Below, piece by piece: positions 328-40,785 of a stretch of 46,382 nt of DNA. Where the stretch lies: the sequence record DRR723986_8697, one strand, 5' to 3'. The notes beneath the pieces were generated by a model, which was given only the letters and a program-made list of their open reading frames with translations, had not been told where the DNA came from and searched no databases. Each line of letters opens with the position of its first letter. Position 1 is the first letter of the stretch. The position numbers and the translations under genes were made by a program.

Positions 328-1452
328 TTATACGTAGTTATTCAACATCACAGGCATTACTAGCATTAGGATGTCTTCGTTTTCATCCTGCTCAGCCGGA
401 AGGATCAAACCTGCACGGTTAGGCGCAGAGAACTTCAAGCTAACTTCTTTGCAAGAAAGGTTATTCAACATTTCTACCAGGAATTTAGCGTTGAAACCGA
501 TTTCGATATCCTCTCCATCGTGCTCACAGGAAAGTCTTTCGTTCGCCTCGTTAGAGAAATCAAGATCTTCAGCAGAAATCATCAATTCGCTACCCGTCAA
601 TTTCAATCTTACCTGATGCGTGGTTTTATTTGCATAGATCGCGATACGACGAAGTGAACTTAACAATTCTGAACGGTCAATAGTCATCACGTTCGGGTTT
701 TCCGCAGGAATTACATTTTCGTAATCAGGGAAACGCTCGTCGATCAAACGACAAATCATCTTGATGTTATTGAAGTTGAAATAGGCGTTTGACTGATTAA
801 ACTCTACAGTTACCGGAAGATTTTCTGAAGGCAAAGTTGACTTCAAAAGGTTCAATGCTTTACGAGGAATAATCAAAGTAGCAGCATCCTGTGAAGCGAT
901 ATCTACTCTTCTGTATCTTACCAGTCTATGTCCGTCAGTTGCTACGAAGGTAGTATTTGTTGGGCTTAGATTGATGTAAACACCAGTCATTGCAGGACGA
1001 AGTTCATCTGAACTAGTTGCGAAGATCGTGTTAGAAACAGCTGAAGAAAGCACCTCAGTAGACATGTCTACAGAAGTAGCGTTGCTTACAGTTGGGATTT
1101 TCGGGAAGTCAGTTGCATTCTCACCAGCCAATCTATATCGACCATTGTCAGAACTGATCTCAACCGCGTAAGTATCATGATCAATGCTGAAAGTAACCGG
1201 CTGCTCTGGTAGGTTTTTCAACGTCTCGATCAAAATCTTTGCAGGCACCGCGATATTTCCATCTTCCTTAGCCTCCACGTTGATTTCAGTAATCATAGAA
1301 GTCTGCAAATCAGATGCGGTAATGGTCAATAGACTCTCTTTGATCTCAAAAAGAAAATTTTCCAAAATTGGCACTACGGGATTGGTTGTTACCACACCGT
1401 TGATAGCCGAAAGCTGCTTTAATAATGCAGAAGAGGAAACAATAAATTTCAT
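328..1452 (-). CDS. dnaN: DNA polymerase III beta sliding clamp
   Basis: 374 aa; ITASDL, VATDGHRL, FPDYENVIP, IGFNAKFL and C-terminal LVMPV motifs. Confidence 0.98.
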   Translation of the reverse strand: MKFIVSSSALLKQLSAINGVVTTNPVVPILENFLFEIKESLLTITASDLQTSMITEINVEAKEDGNIAVPAKILIETLKNLPEQPVTFSIDHDTYAVEISSDNGRYRLAGENATDFPKIPTVSNATSVDMSTEVLSSAVSNTIFATSSDELRPAMTGVYINLSPTNTTFVATDGHRLVRYRRVDIASQDAATLIIPRKALNLLKSTLPSENLPVTVEFNQSNAYFNFNNIKMICRLIDERFPDYENVIPAENPNVMTIDRSELLSSLRRIAIYANKTTHQVRLKLTGSELMISAEDLDFSNEANERLSCEHDGEDIEIGFNAKFLVEMLNNLSCKEVSLKFSAPNRAGLILPAEQDENEDILMLVMPVMLNNYV

Positions 1453-1475
1453 ATGATTATAATTTTTCTATTGAA

Positions 1476-1544
1476 GGTCATATGGAATCTCGCATAGATT
1501 ATGAACATCCCAATCTGAGAAGTTTAGTCATGCTCGATTTCATA
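1476..1544 (-). promoter_or_regulatory. Conserved 5'-leader hairpin element, copy 1 (candidate cis-regulatory RNA)
   Basis: Minus strand TATGAAATCGAGCATG...TATGCGAGATTCCATATGACC, ending 23 nt before the dnaN ATG; shared with 27726-27798 and 39876-39945. Confidence 0.6.
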
Positions 1545-1664
1545 TCGTAGGGCTTAATATATTTTTACTTTTGAATGGGGGTAAATTTATAAATAAATTC
1601 TAATTCGAACCGTCGTATAAATGAATCTCTGACAAAATAATGAAATAGAACCTATTTTTTTGAC

Positions 1665-27667: not shown

Positions 27668-27721
27668 TGTAAATAAGCTGCAAGATTTCAAAGATGTATT
27701 TTATCTTGCAGCTTATTTACA
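27668..27721. repeat. Perfect 19-bp inverted repeat after fbp
   Basis: TGTAAATAAGCTGCAAGAT-16 nt-ATCTTGCAGCTTATTTACA; no U-tract. Confidence 0.85.
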
Positions 27722-27725
27722 ACGC

Positions 27726-27798
27726 TATGAAATCGAGCATGAGTAAGAACCCCTTGCATAAAGGTTTTACTGTAATGCATGCGAGATTCCATGTGACC
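27726..27798 (+). promoter_or_regulatory. Conserved 5'-leader hairpin element, copy 2
   Basis: TATGAAATCGAGCATG...CATGCGAGATTCCATGTGACC, ending 21 nt before ATG 27820. Confidence 0.6.
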
Positions 27799-27819
27799 GT
27801 TGGAAAACAATATATACAC

Positions 27820-28986
27820 ATGACAAAAAACAAACTATACCTGCCTATCGCTCTCGTAGCATCTGGCATCGCCTTAGCAACATCTTGCTCACCTAAAGAG
27901 CAAGAAGCTGTAGTCGAACCTATCGATGAGACTTACGCTGTTCAAACTGAACAGCTATTAATCAATGTTGACACCCTTTATACTGGATTTGAAAATCCTT
28001 GGGGCATGACATGGCTATCTGATGGTAGAATGCTTGTTACTGAGAAAAAAGGAGAAATCCTTATTTTCAAAGACGATAAATTCACCGGAGAGAAAGTACA
28101 GGGGCTTCCTGAGGTTTGGACAAAAGGTCAATCTGGTTTGTTGGACGTTACAGCTCATCCAAAATTTGATGAGAATGGCTGGATCTATATTTCCTATGGC
28201 AAGCTAATGCCAGATAGCACATCCGCTACAACGATCACAAGATTTAAGCTAGAAGGCAATAATGCAGTCAATCAAGAAGAGCTGATTCAATCGCTTCCAG
28301 CATGGAAAAGCAATGCGCATTACGGTAGTCGAATTGTATTCGATAACGACGGATACCTTTACTATTCTAGTGGAGACCGTCAAAACACTCCTACAAATGC
28401 ACAGGATTTGACCAACTCTCATGGAAAAATTCACCGAATTCATGACGATGGCAGAATCCCGACTGACAATCCATTTGTAGATACTGAGGGTGCCGTAGCT
28501 TCAATCTGGACTTATGGAAACAGAAACCCTCAAGGCTTGTATTTCGACAAAGAAAATAATAGACTTTATGAAACTGAGCACGGTCCTCAAGGTGGTGACG
28601 AGTTGAATTTGTTGGAAAAAGGAAAAAATTACGGTTGGCCAGTGATTACTTGGGGAATTGGATATGATGACAAACCAGTTTCTGACATTCAGGAAAAAGA
28701 AGGAATGGAACAACCATTAACTTATTATGTACCATCCATCGCTACTGCGGGTATGACAATGGTCACTTCAGATAAATATCCGGCTTGGAAAGGCGATATT
28801 CTTATCGGTGCATTAAAGAAAATGCACATCAACCGTGTAGACATGAATGGATCTACCGCCGGAGAGCAAGAAATTATGCTTCAGGATATCGGACGTGTAC
28901 GCCAGGTTTCTCAAAGCCCAGATGGCTATATTTATGCTATTACTGAAGGTACAGGCTTAATGGTAAAGTTGATTCCGATTAGATAA
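27820..28986 (+). CDS. PQQ-dependent soluble sugar dehydrogenase (GdhB/YliI-like) lipoprotein
   Basis: Start moved to 27820 so the lipoprotein signal (MTKNK...LATSC) is N-terminal; PWGMTW, GLLDV, HYGSRI, YGNRNPQG, EHGPQGGDELN. Confidence 0.9.
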   Translation: MTKNKLYLPIALVASGIALATSCSPKEQEAVVEPIDETYAVQTEQLLINVDTLYTGFENPWGMTWLSDGRMLVTEKKGEILIFKDDKFTGEKVQGLPEVWTKGQSGLLDVTAHPKFDENGWIYISYGKLMPDSTSATTITRFKLEGNNAVNQEELIQSLPAWKSNAHYGSRIVFDNDGYLYYSSGDRQNTPTNAQDLTNSHGKIHRIHDDGRIPTDNPFVDTEGAVASIWTYGNRNPQGLYFDKENNRLYETEHGPQGGDELNLLEKGKNYGWPVITWGIGYDDKPVSDIQEKEGMEQPLTYYVPSIATAGMTMVTSDKYPAWKGDILIGALKKMHINRVDMNGSTAGEQEIMLQDIGRVRQVSQSPDGYIYAITEGTGLMVKLIPIR

Positions 28987-36468: not shown

Positions 36469-37404
36469 TTATTTTTCTTCGATAACGTAAGCGCCTTGAG
36501 TGTTGATTTCAGAGAAATAAACATCTACGTCAAGACCAATTTTTGAAAATATTTCTTTGCCTGCTTCGCCTACGGCATCGGCAGTTTCTTTTCCCCGAGA
36601 AAGGGCAAAAAGTGTAGGACCAGAACCTGAAATCCCCATTCCTAAAGCACCGGCAGCCTTCAAGGCTTCTCTTACTTCATAAAAGCCCGGAAGCAAAACC
36701 GCTCGATAAGGTTCTGCGATCACATCCCGAAGAGATCTGGAAATCAATTGAAAATCACTTTCGTACAAGCCTGCTATTAACCCAGCGACATTTCCAGACT
36801 GTATGGTTGCATGCTTCATAGGAATTTGGTCTCTCAGTACAGATCTAGAATCTGCAGTTTTTAGCTCATAATGTGGATGCAACAAGGTGCAATAAAGACC
36901 GTCAGGCACAGGAAGTTTGATCACATCCAGCGGATGGTAATCTCTTACCAACACAAAGCCTCCTAATAAACTTGGGGCAACATTATCTGCGTGCCCGGCT
37001 CCACAAGCCACTTTCTCCGCCGCTATCGCAAAAGGCAATAAATCTTTCTTTTCAAATGGATCACCCAAAACCCTGTTGGCAGCTGCCAATGCAGCCACGG
37101 CACTTGCAGCACTTGACCCCATACCTGAGCCTAAAGGCAATCCTTTAGTCAGATATATATTCATTCCAACATTGGAATCCAACTCATCCAACATGGCTTG
37201 AATAGCCACAGCACAGGTGTTTTTCTCCGCTTCAAGAGGGAGCTTCCCGTCGTCTCCATCAATAGAAACAACAACTAACCCCGGCTCATCCTTCAGAACC
37301 AGCTCTACAGTATCCCCCATCGCATCGATCGCAAATCCAAGGATATCAAATCCACAAGATACATTTGCTACAGTTGCTGGGGCAAAGGCTTTGACGGAGT
37401 GCAT
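36469..37404 (-). CDS. thrB: Homoserine kinase
   Basis: APATVANVSCGFD, PLGSGMGSSAAS, HADNVAP, ISGSGP. Confidence 0.96.
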   Translation of the reverse strand: MHSVKAFAPATVANVSCGFDILGFAIDAMGDTVELVLKDEPGLVVVSIDGDDGKLPLEAEKNTCAVAIQAMLDELDSNVGMNIYLTKGLPLGSGMGSSAASAVAALAAANRVLGDPFEKKDLLPFAIAAEKVACGAGHADNVAPSLLGGFVLVRDYHPLDVIKLPVPDGLYCTLLHPHYELKTADSRSVLRDQIPMKHATIQSGNVAGLIAGLYESDFQLISRSLRDVIAEPYRAVLLPGFYEVREALKAAGALGMGISGSGPTLFALSRGKETADAVGEAGKEIFSKIGLDVDVYFSEINTQGAYVIEEK

Positions 37405-39854
37405 TATTCTCTAGTGTAGTTACCTATACGAATCACATCTGCAAACACTCCTGCAGCAGTTACGTCTGCACCTGCACCTGGACCTCGGATGATCATTGGT
37501 CTATCACGATATCTATCTGTAGTCAATAGAATCATATTGTCACTTCCTCCCAATCCACTAAATGGATGAGAAAGTGGAAGGGAATTCAACCCTACTTTCG
37601 CTTTGCCATTCTCCAAAGTTGCCATGAAGCGAAGTTTTTCTCCTTTTGCTTCAGCTGTTTTCAGCATGTCTTCAAAATCAACATCATGCGTTTTCAACAC
37701 TTCAAAAAACTCTGGAACAGTACCTAAATTTTGACAATCTTCAGGTACCATGCTTTGGATCTCGATAGAGTCAAACTCCAAATCCTGCTCTGCCTCACGA
37801 CCCAAAATCAGGATCTTCCTAGCCACATCCATTCCACTCAAATCATCTCTAGGGTCTGGCTCAGTAAAGCCAAGTTCTTTCGCTTTTTTTACCACCTCAG
37901 AGAAAGGATCACCTTTTTCAAGTTCAGAGAAAATATAATTCATCGACCCAGAAAGTACCGCTTCTATACGAATCACCTTATCTCCACTTAGCATCAAATC
38001 CTGTAACGTATTGATTACTGGAAGTCCTGCCGCTACGTTGGTTTCATACAGGAATTTCACACCACGTTTTTTTGCCAAACGCTTAAGTGATTTGTATTGC
38101 TCCATGGAGCCAGAATTGGCTTTTTTGTTTGGAGTAACGATTGCAACTTTAGCTTCCAAAATCTGAGAATAAAGCTCAGCCACATCCTGGCTTGCGGTAC
38201 AATCCACAAATACAGAATTGGAGAAGTTCATCTCTTCCATAGTTCTGATGAATTTACCCAAATCAGTTTGATCATCAGAATCACTCAGTTCATATGGATT
38301 GGAAAGGTCGAAGCCATCTTCATGGAAAGCCATATATCGACTGTTCGCAAGACCGTGGATCTGAATATCCAATTCATTATCCCCACGGAGCTTTTGCTGT
38401 TGGTTAGCTATCATTTTGATCAGCGCTTGACCAATCAACCCTGTACCAACCAAAAATACGTGAAGCACCTTATTTTCTGATAGGAAAAACGCCTCATGAA
38501 GCGCGTTCAGCGCCTTCTGCAAATCTGGCTGAGGAATCACAGCCGAGATATTCAACTCCGAACTCCCCTGCGCAATTGCTCCTACGTTAATATTGTTTCT
38601 TCCCAAAGCACGGAACATACGTCCCGAAGCACCTGGGTTATGCTTCATATTTTCGCCAACTACGGCTACAGTAGCCAAGTTATGTAGCAGTATGACCTCA
38701 TCCATTTCTCCGGATTTGATTTCATAGAAAAACTCCTTTTCCACTGCCTCTTTTGCCAAATACGCTTCCTGAGTTTTGATCGCCAAGCAGATACTATGTT
38801 CAGAGGAAGCCTGAGAAATAAGCAAAATATTTACTCTCGCCTCAGCCAAAGCTTTGAATACTCGACTCGTCCCAACTGCAGAATCCAACATTCCTGGACC
38901 TTGAACCGTCACAATAGAAACATTTGGAATAGAGCTAATCCCTTTGATCAATGCTCCAGGGCTTACTTCCCCGTTGATCAGTGTTCCTGGATTTTCAGGC
39001 TCAAAGGTGTTTTTAATATAAATAGGGATGCTATTTCGCATCGCTGGCTGCATGGTCGCCGGGAAAATAACTTTGGCACCAAAATGCGAAAGCTCCATCG
39101 CTTCATTATAACTCAGCTGAGGAATGGTGAAGGCAGTGTAAACCAACTTCGGGTCTGAAGTCAACACGCCCGAAACATCTGTCCAGATTTCAAGACACTC
39201 AGCATTTAAAGCTGCCGCAAAAATGGCCGCTGTATAATCTGAGCCTGATCTTCCAAGTGTAGTAGTTTCTCCTTTTTCAGTAGATGCGATAAAACCAGTG
39301 ATTACTTTGATTCCCTCATGCTTTGCAAAATAGTTTTTGATGGCAGCGTTGGTGACATCAAAGTCAACCTTCGCCTGACCGAATCGATCATTGGTACGGA
39401 TTACTTCGCGTGCATCAAGAAACTGAGTTTTCAGTCCATGTCCCTGCATGGATTCTGCAAGGATAAATGCCGCCAGCCTCTCTCCAAAACTTGCCACATA
39501 ATCCAGTGTGCGAACAGAATTTTCTTTGATCAGGTAAATGCCATGAAAAAGATCCTCTAACTCTTTGAATCGTACTTTCACAAAGGTCATCACGGTTGAC
39601 TGGCTCTGTACAGAGATCAACTGACGTACGATGGTCAGATGCTTTTCTTCCAAAGATTGTAGGACTTCACGGTACGCCTCATCTCCTTCTCTAGCCAACT
39701 GGGCTATCTTCAATAAGCTTTCCGTCACTCCTCCAAAAGCAGAAAAAACAATAGCTGTTTCATGTTCTTTGAGCGTTTCCTTAATGATAGAAAAAACTCG
39801 CTGTATATTTTCAGGGTTCGCTACGGATGAGCCACCGAACTTGATGATTTTCAT
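37404..39854 (-). CDS. thrA: Bifunctional aspartate kinase/homoserine dehydrogenase I
   Basis: KFGGSS, TTLGRSGSD, two ACT domains, GTGLIG, YETNVAAGLP, TEPDPRDDLSG, GPGAG. Confidence 0.97.
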   Translation of the reverse strand: MKIIKFGGSSVANPENIQRVFSIIKETLKEHETAIVFSAFGGVTESLLKIAQLAREGDEAYREVLQSLEEKHLTIVRQLISVQSQSTVMTFVKVRFKELEDLFHGIYLIKENSVRTLDYVASFGERLAAFILAESMQGHGLKTQFLDAREVIRTNDRFGQAKVDFDVTNAAIKNYFAKHEGIKVITGFIASTEKGETTTLGRSGSDYTAAIFAAALNAECLEIWTDVSGVLTSDPKLVYTAFTIPQLSYNEAMELSHFGAKVIFPATMQPAMRNSIPIYIKNTFEPENPGTLINGEVSPGALIKGISSIPNVSIVTVQGPGMLDSAVGTSRVFKALAEARVNILLISQASSEHSICLAIKTQEAYLAKEAVEKEFFYEIKSGEMDEVILLHNLATVAVVGENMKHNPGASGRMFRALGRNNINVGAIAQGSSELNISAVIPQPDLQKALNALHEAFFLSENKVLHVFLVGTGLIGQALIKMIANQQQKLRGDNELDIQIHGLANSRYMAFHEDGFDLSNPYELSDSDDQTDLGKFIRTMEEMNFSNSVFVDCTASQDVAELYSQILEAKVAIVTPNKKANSGSMEQYKSLKRLAKKRGVKFLYETNVAAGLPVINTLQDLMLSGDKVIRIEAVLSGSMNYIFSELEKGDPFSEVVKKAKELGFTEPDPRDDLSGMDVARKILILGREAEQDLEFDSIEIQSMVPEDCQNLGTVPEFFEVLKTHDVDFEDMLKTAEAKGEKLRFMATLENGKAKVGLNSLPLSHPFSGLGGSDNMILLTTDRYRDRPMIIRGPGAGADVTAAGVFADVIRIGNYTRE

Positions 39855-39875
39855 GTGTTATAAGTTGATTTTATG

Positions 39876-39945
39876 GGTCACATGGAATCTCGCATAGTTG
39901 ATAATCATACCTCTGTGTAAACCTTCGGCTATGCTTGATTTCATA
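39876..39945 (-). promoter_or_regulatory. Conserved 5'-leader hairpin element, copy 3
   Basis: Minus strand TATGAAATCAAGCATAG...CTATGCGAGATTCCATGTGACC, ending 21 nt before the thrA ATG. Confidence 0.6.
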
Positions 39946-40032
39946 AATTTTACTTCTGGAATTAATTACTTGGGAAATTAATATTAGCCAATTAAGGCCT
40001 AGGGGGCGGGTACTTAAAATATATAGACGGGA

Positions 40033-40098
40033 TTAACCCGTAATCGTGGTACCAATCCATGTCGTCATAGAAAAAGTGGTGCAGGCTCTCGCTTCCAT
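40033..40098 (-). CDS. Putative thr operon leader peptide (21 aa, MEARACTTFSMTTWIGTTITG)
   Basis: 7 Thr and 2 Ile in the last 15 codons; same strand as thrA, stop 178 nt upstream of the thrA ATG; alternative in-frame ATGs at 40146 and codon 11. Confidence 0.7.
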   Translation of the reverse strand: MEARACTTFSMTTWIGTTITG

Positions 40099-40362
40099 AG
40101 CTGGAAGTAGATCTAGGTCTGAAGAGATTTTTACTGCAAATACCATAACTGGACAATTGACATGACAATCTTACTGCCAAAATTTTTATTACCCAAACAA
40201 TCCATTGGGGATTTTCAAAAAAAACTGAAAGTTCATTGTAAATAACACAAGAATTTCCCCGAAAACTGAAATTCAAATAGAATCACTTTCTATCTCTCCA
40301 TATAACGAAATTGAATTTGGAATCAAATTCATTAAATTAAAGGAGCCCAAAACCCTGCCGCT

Positions 40363-40785
40363 ATGAGCGTTTTAAAAACTGTATCGATTGGATTAATATT
40401 CCTGCTATTCATAAATTGTACAGGTACCAAAGAAATTAATCCACTAAACCACCTCAAAAGTACAAGCTGGGCCCTTTCATCTTTAATGGGCCAAGGTCTA
40501 GATTTAAATCAGTTTAGCGGAGGACTACCAATGCTGAATTTCCTGGATGATGGTAAACTTGCCGGATTTTCAGGATGCAATAATTTCTCTGGAAACTTTC
40601 TACTGGAAAGCAGCGGGCTTCTACTTGATCCTGGTGCGATAACTAAAAAAATATGCCCAGGAAGAGGAGAACAAGATTTTATTGCGGTAATGAAAAAGGT
40701 AAAGAATTTTAAGATCAGTAAAGACAAACTCATCTTACTCGATGGTGACACCGAGTTGATGAGTTTTGTCCCAAAGAAGCAGTAA
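40363..40785 (+). CDS. META-domain (HslJ-like) lipoprotein
   Basis: Lipobox-like FINC, W-x-L, GFSGCNNFSG, TKKICP. Confidence 0.85.
   Translation: MSVLKTVSIGLIFLLFINCTGTKEINPLNHLKSTSWALSSLMGQGLDLNQFSGGLPMLNFLDDGKLAGFSGCNNFSGNFLLESSGLLLDPGAITKKICPGRGEQDFIAVMKKVKNFKISKDKLILLDGDTELMSFVPKKQ

Follow-up and report, generated by a model that had tools for sequence, protein, structure and literature searches.

What is the structured sequence that separates the leader of thrA from its start codon, and does it belong to thrA at all? The question arises in a stretch of 46,382 nucleotides (nt; sequence record DRR723986_8697), here called the window, in which thrA, encoding an aspartokinase/homoserine dehydrogenase of 816 amino acids, lies on the minus strand (37404..39854) behind a threonine-rich mini-open reading frame (mini-ORF). 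A preliminary description of the window had reported the third copy of an element between the mini-ORF and thrA, and had treated it as a leader element of that gene. We find that the sequence at this site is one copy of a dispersed, non-autonomous mobile repeat of about 92 nt. The comparisons below show that the repeat is inserted seamlessly at start codons of the form ATGA(A), always in one orientation, and that its copies can be gained or lost between close relatives.

The Copy at thrA

The sequence and the ORF listing of the window place the feature adjoining thrA on the minus strand, where it forms a unit running from 39944 to 39855 and ending directly against the thrA ATG (39852-39854), the start codon that is its landing site. 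The unit opens with a 5′ arm, AUGAAAUCAAGCAUAG (39929..39944), whose initial ATGAAA repeats the target start codon and is at once the start of an upstream ORF (uORF) of 28 codons; this arm is at least 90% conserved among 47 copies from the nearest genome. There follows a variable interior of 31 nt (39898..39928), which in the family consensus consists of a small hairpin, GACGnnnnCGUC, and then ACACAnnGGGAUGAUUAU. The 3′ arm, CUAUGCGAGAUUC (39885..39897), is predicted to pair with the 5′ arm across a tandem purine-purine loop. Immediately after it comes a CAUGUG box (39879..39884), complementary to the CACAUG (39852..39857) made up of the element's final three bases and the thrA start codon; this helix is present in the minimum-energy fold, with an A-rich tail, ACC CAUAAAAUCAACUUAUAA CAC (39855..39878), as its loop. 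Comparison with empty sites indicates that the tail is part of the insertion and stands in place of the gene's own upstream region.

The features that had been described for this copy are all present on closer inspection. The arms GCAUAG (within 39929-39944) and CUAUGC (within 39885-39897) form six Watson-Crick pairs on the minus strand, a compensatory change relative to the GCAUG/CAUGC of other copies, and the internal loop is indeed AA/GA here, as against GA/GA in the family consensus. The uORF (MKSSIAEGLHRGMIINYARFHVTHKINL*; 39858..39944) ends in a TAA that is followed by CAC and then by the thrA ATG, 3 nt away as reported, though we regard it as a reading of the element that is not supported as a gene. 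The frame of the window's first copy is broken, leaving an ORF of 14 codons, and the peptide of the second reads ...LHKG..., as had been stated (the near-identical copies L007 and L036 of the nearest genome were also examined). The boundaries given, 39876..39945, need correction: 39945 lies one base outside the uORF ATG (39942-39944), and 39876 cuts the unit short, since it runs on through the A-rich tail to 39855. The complementarity of the box to the thrA start codon had been overlooked.

A Dispersed Repeat Family

A 17-mer from the 3′ arm, allowed up to three mismatches, matches the window three times where 0.12 matches are expected, and none of 100 shuffles reached three. A covariance model of the element (R1) likewise finds exactly three copies, scoring 98.2, 97.6, and 81.6 bits, in matches covering 1442-1550 (minus), 39844-39951 (minus), and 27720-27830 (plus), and nothing else. 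Besides the copy at thrA these are copy 1 (91 nt; 1453..1543, minus), directly before the dnaN ATG (1450-1452), and copy 2 (93 nt; 27727..27819, plus), immediately preceding a lipoprotein-like gene that starts with the ATG at 27820. The repeat has no counterpart in Rfam 15: at gathering score only a tRNA matched in the whole window, and a search of the region 39780-40400 at E values up to 10 gave three matches, all far below their gathering scores.

Statements at the genome scale rest on the nearest genome, G001, which has 63% of sampled 31-mers in common with the window, and on its relatives. An 18-mer from the 3′ arm, again with up to three mismatches, gives 55 matches in G001 against three for a reversed control, and on inspection 50 of the 55 proved to be real copies carrying the 5′ arm. 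Our first alignment, A1, holds 47 G001 copies; it omits three with large internal indels (L001, L010, and L015) and five matches that lack the 5′ arm (L043-L046 and L052). Model R1 finds 70 matches in G001 at E ≤ 0.01, and a 13-mer from the 5′ arm with at most one mismatch finds 74 there and 263 in a second genome, G014, against 3 and 7 for the respective controls. The number of copies per genome ranges from 0 to more than 250.

Read by eye, the family consensus is AUGAAAUCGAGCAUG-ACGnnnnCGU-CACACAnnGGGAUGAUUAUnAnnCAU-GCGAGAUUC-CAUNUG-RCC-nUUAAAAAnCAAAUUAUAAnCAN′, followed by the gene's AUGAAA. Copies also occur in tandem arrays with a period of about 92 nt, in which adjoining units share the ATGAAA hexamer; examples are found at G001:C1:297131-297324 and, with three units each, at G024:C49:1302-1613 and G136:C11:112803-113087. 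Reading of the upstream sequence revealed a tandem unit at seven of the 17 listed loci from outside Algoriphagus as well.

Position at Start Codons

At 29 of the first 30 G001 loci examined, a long ORF begins with the ATG adjoining the tail, and the distance from the 3′-arm 18-mer to the gene's ATG is 17-23 nt in 30 copies. Of the next 20 real copies, 18 are open from the tail ATG over the available length of at least 59 codons (L040, one of the two exceptions, opens a tandem pair). In total, 47 of the 50 G001 copies lie in the sense orientation directly before a long ORF beginning ATGA(A), and all copies are in the sense orientation. The gene starts in A1 read ATGA in 47 of 47 cases and ATGAA in 46 of 47. 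A crude gene call on the window assigns its 206 ATGAA sites to 17 gene starts, 31 intergenic non-starts, and 158 positions inside coding sequence; with only 17 of 206 sites at starts, the ATGAA motif alone cannot explain the presence of 47 of 50 copies at start codons.

The genes behind the copies are ordinary and mutually unrelated, judging from 27 proteins scanned in G001, and no transposase is among these. Their products include a LacI-type regulator, an FKBP isomerase, phosphofructokinase (pfk), OmpH, a sugar epimerase, three SusD-like proteins, a radical-SAM methylthiotransferase, UbiA, PspC, RsmB, CcmD, an HlyD-type protein, ribosomal protein L25 (rplY), PRAI (trpF), QueA, an alanine-dehydrogenase-like protein, a glycosyltransferase, and a pseudouridine synthase, in addition to the products of thrA and dnaN.

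At trpF we observed an exact 13-nt match to the 5′ arm within the 3′ end of the upstream coding sequence (...GENFMKSSRPEQ...; L083, G001:C7:206326-206338), 89 nt before the real trpF element. It may be a chance match, or the remnant of a tandem unit absorbed into the end of the gene.

Empty and Filled Sites

The preliminary description had proposed comparing thrA leaders among related genomes for presence or absence of the element. Orthologues of thrA are found in 25 of 26 genomes of the genus, and in the 23 loci that are readable the site is filled in six (G001, G014, G025, G006, G015, and G022) and empty in 17. The empty sites read ...ttt|ATGAAAATC, and the filled site of G001 reads ...ttt|ATGAAATCAAGC...AACAC|ATGAAAATC, with homologous flanks; the region upstream of thrA is closely similar in G016, which is empty, and G022, which is filled. 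At dnaN the site is filled in eight and empty in 16 of 24 readable loci of the genus, the filled ones being those of G001, G025, G023, G006, G015, G016, G024, and G022, the last with two tandem units. In G014 the dnaN site is empty, even though the DnaN proteins of G014 and G001 are 99% identical. The patterns of filled and empty loci suggest at least three independent insertions each at thrA and dnaN, the alternative being a single filling followed by precise losses. Here the conserved flank ...taagccctacgat abuts ATGAAATTT when the site is empty and ATGAAATCGAGC when it is filled.

Both loci follow the same pattern, in which flank|ATGAAA becomes flank|ATGAAATCGAGC...CAN′|ATGAAA; the inserted segment extends from ATGAAATCG... 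to ...AAnCAN′, and ATGAAA(T) is present at both of its ends. These alleles identify the element as an inserted mobile repeat, so that any role it has in RNA would be generic rather than specific to threonine. The idea of a leader element dedicated to thrA does not survive the comparison: clean empty sites are found at 17 of the 23 loci, and the repeat precedes many other genes. Filled and empty alleles of essential genes (dnaN, thrA, and rpmJ) also provide natural controls.

The spacer between infA and rpmJ is filled in four small genomes of the genus, in each of which it holds the only copy. Its length is 1-109 nt in 30 further genomes of the order, none of which has the element there, and the idea of an ancient rpmJ leader was rejected on this ground. 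The four genomes (G009, G018, G004, and G017) measure 2.2-2.6 Mb, and each yields a single model match (L090-L093), between infA and rpmJ, with an interior that forms a long compensated stem. These copies are candidates for a fixed or useful insertion.

The Threonine Mini-ORF and Transcription of the Leader

The position of the copy, between a conserved threonine-rich mini-ORF and thrA, suggests another explanation, namely that it forms part of a threonine attenuator of thrA, for example as an additional terminator or antiterminator stem. The mini-ORF (MTTWIGTTITG*; 40033..40068, minus) has its stop within a hairpin, ACGGGUUAAUCCCGU (40027-40041), and is kept in 15 of the genus's 23 thrA loci, both with and without the element. 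The element occurs in only six of those 15; the nine mini-ORF-bearing loci that lack it, as empty alleles, contradict an attenuator role. Moreover, the repeat stands before about 70 unrelated genes, and its hairpins are not followed by a run of U. We therefore consider participation in an attenuator extremely improbable; the thrA copy is a passenger between the mini-ORF and the gene, with no threonine-specific role.

The mini-ORF region itself looks like a threonine/isoleucine attenuator without an Rfam entry, to judge from its sequence. In relatives the mini-ORF ends ...TTMITG*, with the stop inside a conserved small hairpin of the ACGGGGUGACCCGU type (40027-40068, minus, in the window; L056-L070 among the relatives), and downstream of it are a conserved GUACCCGCCCC box and a GGCC...GGCC hairpin. 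The folding of this threonine leader is not significant (z from −0.5 to −1.3).

The preliminary description had also placed the copy inside the thrA mRNA leader, provided that the leader peptide is real. Its position downstream of the mini-ORF agrees with this, and the transcript data amount to a weak hint that the element is transcribed there. In an RNA library from a relative, a contig of 270 nt (40147 to 39886) connects the mini-ORF with the element. Three other contigs match other copies, in each case no more than the 3′ arm and tail, and extend into a gene start. The run holds a fraction of 0.06 of the sampled words and was available as contigs, in which contamination with DNA is possible. 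The sense strand of the consensus, inspected by eye, showed no promoter motif of the Bacteroidota type (TAnnTTTG).

Distribution

Model matches are present in 18 of 25 genomes of the genus, in numbers from one to at least 93. Across the family, with one genome of at least 90% completeness per genus, 38 of 71 genera have a match at E ≤ 1e-5; six of these have at least 51 matches and many have one to three. Beyond the family, with one genome per family, a match was found in one of 16 other families of the order.

A scan of public genomes with a 15-mer listed 122 loci, of which 57 carry the 5′ arm. The named carriers among the listed matches are many Algoriphagus species together with Pararhodonellum, Lunatibacter, Cyclobacterium, Negadavirga, Lunatimonas, Aquiflexum, and Anditalea (Cyclobacteriaceae), as well as a Roseivirgaceae and a Cytophagales metagenome-assembled genome; 15-mer matches in unrelated phyla lack the 5′ arm and were set aside as chance.

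The genome that gave the match among the 16 other families, G028, has a single real copy, L089. Its arms, AAACCCGC/GCGGGUU, are fully Watson-Crick paired and one base shorter than the usual AAUCGAGC/GCGAGAUU, the G·A loop being replaced, and it retains the CAUCUG...CAGAUG helix and the tail. The gene that follows presumably specifies a product resembling acyl-CoA reductases.

Constraint on Nucleotides Rather Than on a Peptide

Could the element instead encode a small functional protein? The family consensus has an open frame that starts with the 5′ ATG and is closed by a TGA overlapping the ATG of the gene, for a product of about 28-31 residues (MKSSMTxxSHxGMIIxHARFH[MVL]TxKxQIINx). Of 64 cross-species copies, 17 have the stop at +1, another 17 at −7, and 12 at −19 to −21, while seven are fused to the gene and eight stop early; in G001 alone, the stop lies at +1 in only 13 of 47 copies. 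Entropies of 1.13, 0.75, and 0.97 at codon positions 1, 2, and 3 do not form a coding pattern, and the arms show no variation at synonymous positions.

Indels of a single nucleotide are frequent. The 5′ ATG and the 3′ arm are separated by 51 nt in 27 of the 47 G001 copies, by 50 or 52 nt in 14, and by 48, 54, or 57 nt in four, and the 52-nt class makes up 12 of the 64 cross-species copies. The suggestion that element lengths might favor multiples of three is thus not borne out in G001, where lengths of 50 and 52 nt are far commoner than shifts of three or six. In 16 of 47 G001 copies a stop closes the frame ahead of the 3′ arm, and the copy in front of the essential gene dnaN is one of these. 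With no codon signature and a frame so often broken, the doubt already voiced about a role for the peptide was justified; we consider a functional peptide product very unlikely, and the pattern of sequence variation indicates that the nucleotides, rather than a protein, are under constraint. Insertion in any case inevitably creates a short uORF, since what used to lie upstream of the gene is now followed by the AUGAAA of the element.

Structure and Covariation

An unbiased scan of A1 for mutual information returns, as the top pair, the middle base of the CAUNUG box (column 91) and the base immediately before the gene's ATG (column 119), with a value of 0.77 against 0.35 for the next pair. In a hand-drawn structure, the start-codon helix formed by CAUNUG with CAN′AUG is 93% paired in A1, the N:N′ combination being GC in 16 copies, AU in 13, CG in seven, UG in two, GU in one, and another in eight (n = 47). 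A second alignment, A2, contains 73 copies from many species fitted to the model; they were found through an exact 3′ arm, and the set is hence biased for that arm. In A2 the same helix is 97% paired (GC 26, CG 24, AU 13, GU 1, UG 1, other 8).

The arm helix (P1) is 89.6% paired in A1, with one of its pairs appearing as GC in 38 copies, AU in four, and GU in four, and the interior hairpin (P2) is 60% paired in A1 and 80% in A2, with double changes at all four of its pairs in both alignments. None of 500 shuffles attains the observed covariation score, and if the structure is slid by one to three columns only 15-40% of cells pair. The tandem loop between the arms is G·A in 41 and A·G in 42 of the 47 copies of A1; an A·C opposition is conserved in 44 of 47, and that C also stands opposite the gene's +4 A in 44 of 47. 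When six copies were folded by minimum energy, most showed the arm hairpin next to the start-codon hairpin.

The 3′ arm, GCGAGAUUC-CAUNUG, is complementary to both termini of the element, and in tandem copies the 3′ arm, the tail, and the next 5′ arm consequently form a continuous imperfect hairpin. At five such junctions the predicted hairpin has a free energy of −10.4 to −17.4 kcal/mol (z from −2.0 to −5.3). In a single copy, the site that is continuous at the junction is divided between the arm helix and the start-codon helix.

Two further pairings were considered and rejected. The base before the 5′ ATG shows no covariation with the N of the box, the pair falling outside the top 25, and pairing of the interior AUGAUUAU with AUAAUCAU of the tail fits some copies (L024 and L025), not others, and is not among the top pairs.

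A nested hairpin of approximately 20-27 nt, often of the form UCCCGA-loop-UCGGGA, occurs in many copies, and its location is fixed: it lies between GAGAUUC(C) and the CAUNUG box. We observed it in four G001 copies (L082, L085, L086, and L088), at three thrA loci (L058, L065, and L069), and at one dnaN locus (L375). At both thrA and dnaN it is present in G025 and absent from the orthologous G001 copy, which identifies it as a later, secondary insertion. A second mobile hairpin of very small size may be involved, or the place may be a hot spot for expansion.

Proposed Mechanism of Insertion and Possible Function

Complementarity and covariation suggest the following scheme. The 3′ arm would pair with the 5′ arm, leaving the conserved tandem G·A loop and the A·C mismatch, and the CAUNUG box would pair with the last three bases of the element and the ATG that follows. 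In a tandem or circular junction the two pairings would merge into one continuous imperfect hairpin, and this hairpin would be the site for strand-specific, hairpin-guided insertion and for seamless loss, the 3′ arm aligning both termini and the box setting the right-hand junction at the start codon. Once inserted, the element would be transcribed in the 5′ leader of the gene (at thrA, downstream of the threonine mini-ORF), and the gene's old upstream region would now drive the short uORF. The A-rich tail would serve as a new initiation region, with the start codon held in a weak helix of 6 bp, and the gene would stay expressed through direct initiation via the tail, through termination and reinitiation after the uORF, or through both. 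We consider it probable that the repeat inserts in this manner, seamlessly and only in the sense direction on the 5′ side of ATGA(A) start codons, with the split hairpin as the insertion site and the gene remaining expressed.

Several observations weigh against this account. The first concerns the enzyme: none that could mobilize the repeat was found with Y1 transposase profiles, in the neighborhoods of copies, or among the downstream genes. A Y1 transposase was rejected as the mobilizer because its presence shows no correlation with copy number; PF01797 occurs in 24 of 26 genomes of the genus, including those with no copy or one, and was not found in G022, a genome of 100% completeness with at least 92 copies. 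A search, not exhaustive, showed no long autonomous version among the inspected G001 copies or downstream of copies; two orphan 5′ arms in G001 that might have belonged to one are ordinary copies with diverged 3′ arms or nested hairpins, and in low-copy genomes of five other genera, where four of ten matches could be resolved, no recombinase gene follows the element. The element ends have no terminal inverted repeats and no evident classical target-site duplication. Carriage by phages was discarded, as none of the 118 viral-contig matches listed is a real copy with the 5′ arm.

Fold support for single copies is modest (z from −1.1 to −3.05 in the six copies folded), and the RNAalifold consensus of 47 copies is weak, at seven pairs and −0.49 kcal/mol, which is why the helices were defined by hand and then tested. 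An excess of G·U over A·C mismatches, expected as a mark of selection at the RNA level, is absent: the mismatches are strand-symmetric, at 10 versus 10 in P1 and 5 versus 4 in the start-codon helix, and give no sign of which strand or molecule folds. The restriction to start codons can itself be read in two ways, as the work of an additional targeting cue or as selection that spares only those copies that lie at start sites. Selection retaining such copies would favor a function for the host. Finally, the four infA-rpmJ orthologues keep one long hairpin, with three compensatory pairs, in genomes without other copies, and this pattern suggests that the sequence is constrained in place even without ongoing mobility.

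An alternative is that the repeat is a cis-regulatory RNA module of the host, spread by mobility and kept by selection, in which the box sequesters the start codon and many genes are controlled together; the arm hairpin with its tandem G·A loop might bind a common factor or melt with temperature. A role of this kind, in the transcript or in place, is favored by the covariation of the start-codon helix in both alignments, by the strictly sense placement at start codons set against the 17 starts among 206 ATGAA sites, and by the conserved hairpin at infA-rpmJ. It is favored too by the tandem G·A/A·G loop, a motif with stability in the sense strand alone (on the opposite strand C·T/T·C would take its place), and by the arms, whose conservation far exceeds that of the interior; this holds even for the 5′ arm, which played no part in finding the copies.

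A movement site followed by neutral decay is favored, in contrast, by the strand symmetry of the mismatches, by the presence and absence of copies among close genomes, as at thrA and dnaN, and by the divergence of the thrA copies of G001, G014, and G025, which are 67-68% identical where their flanks are 84-86% identical. Copy 2 provides a further case: its box (27789-27794) reads CAUGUG in the window and CAACUG in the G001 copy L036, a TG-to-AC change that breaks the start-codon helix, and these two adjacent changes stand in a stretch of about 110 nt that otherwise differs at two positions. The downstream genes share no function, the number of copies varies widely between genomes, and Rfam offers no match. 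We regard a regulatory module maintained by the host as rather unlikely on this balance, and an RNA function of the element as plausible but unproven.

Comparison with Known Systems

Small non-autonomous repeats are common in bacteria, and the start-codon element belongs among them. It is not a classical MITE (miniature inverted-repeat transposable element), as its inverted repeats do not lie at the ends of the inserted segment, the right arm being about 40 nt inside the right end. The ATGAAA(T) found at both ends is identical in every copy, and might be a shared core or a terminus of the element rather than a target-site duplication. The Correia/NEMIS, ERIC, and RUP repeats and the RPEs of Rickettsia are small bacterial MITE-like repeats, and the accounts available in two sources describe them, like our element, as approximately 100 nt long, non-coding, high in copy number, restricted to particular lineages, co-transcribed with genes (as our element probably is), and folded into a long imperfect stem-loop; in RPEs, reading by ribosomes is tolerated as well (PMC2229807; PMC10969869). 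The terminal repeats and TA duplication ascribed to these families in the same accounts are absent from the start-codon element, which differs also in its fixed position and orientation, in the internal box that pairs with the start codon, and in tandem arrays whose units share ATGAAA. The term "start codon" does not occur in the main text of either source (PMC2229807; PMC10969869).

In its logic the element appears to resemble most closely the ends of IS200/IS605 insertion sequences and the attC sites of integrons. IS200/IS605 elements and their miniature derivatives (PATEs) have subterminal hairpins and no terminal repeats, and insert seamlessly and strand-specifically beside a short target without duplicating it, their cleavage sites being set by pairing with an internal guide beside the hairpin. 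By analogy, the CAUNUG box also lies beside a hairpin and would pair, covarying, with the element's end and the target. The element differs in forming one hairpin from both of its ends, in its canonical helix of 6 bp, in the target ATGAA, and in a geometry unlike that of IS608, and the Y1 transposase genes do not follow its copy number.

An attC site is an imperfect hairpin with obligatory unpaired bases, at which recombination splits a core site so that the core appears at both ends of the cassette; cassettes insert in a specific orientation and build head-to-tail arrays. The junction hairpin of the start-codon element, continuous in tandem copies, is comparable. In contrast to a cassette, the element has no cargo gene, its core, ATGAAA, is unrelated to GTTRRRY, and it is dispersed at the starts of housekeeping genes rather than gathered in one array by an integrase (integrases were not searched).

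Leaders that sequester a start codon, such as RNA thermometers and leaders with translationally coupled uORFs, provide a third comparison. They too hold the start codon in a weak helix, and the uORF of the element ends at +1 or −7 in 34 of 64 cross-species copies, as in coupled leaders; they differ in that the element is mobile, stands before unrelated genes, and lacks a match in Rfam.

The full-text literature, with subscription journals outside coverage, yielded no account of a bacterial repeat with start codons as its target, and there is a real chance that the targeting principle is new. The combination of one-orientation landing at start codons, a replacement initiation region, and pairing with the start codon is apparently undescribed. 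Tentatively, the repeat could represent a new kind of mobile element for which the start codon is a programmed landing site, with the 3′ arm acting as the guide to its termini and to the target AUGA(A); we put this forward as a possibility that falls short of being likely. If it were true, insertion and loss would be seamless and strand-specific by virtue of a built-in guide, and insertion would be harmless or even useful, as the old initiation region would drive a uORF ending at or beside the real AUG and the tail would renew initiation. The start codons of a genome would then form a niche for a selfish element, and many unrelated genes would have a ready-made route to control by one start-codon-masking hairpin.

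If the targeting is real, it raises the questions of how start codons are told from other ATGAA sites and which enzyme moves a hairpin of 92 nt. Bacteroidota are reported to initiate translation without Shine-Dalgarno pairing, and a further question is what happens to translation in these organisms when dozens to hundreds of genes gain the same leader.

Consequences for Annotation and the Surroundings of Copy 2

In-frame versions of the element, of 90 or 93 nt, account for seven of the 64 cross-species copies and would create false N-terminal extensions. Copy 2 is read through in this way: it contains no in-frame stop, and ORF callers accordingly give an ORF of 430 amino acids (27694-28986, plus) for a gene whose likely start is at 27820. 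The element thus generates false long ORFs as well as N-terminal extensions in annotation.

Directly before copy 2, after the stop of the upstream gene, lies a long perfect palindrome, AAAUAAGCUGCAAGAU...AUCUUGCAGCUUAUUU (27670-27716, plus), which looks like a terminator. No promoter was seen for the gene downstream of copy 2; if the palindrome is a terminator, expression of that gene may depend on read-through or on a promoter of its own.

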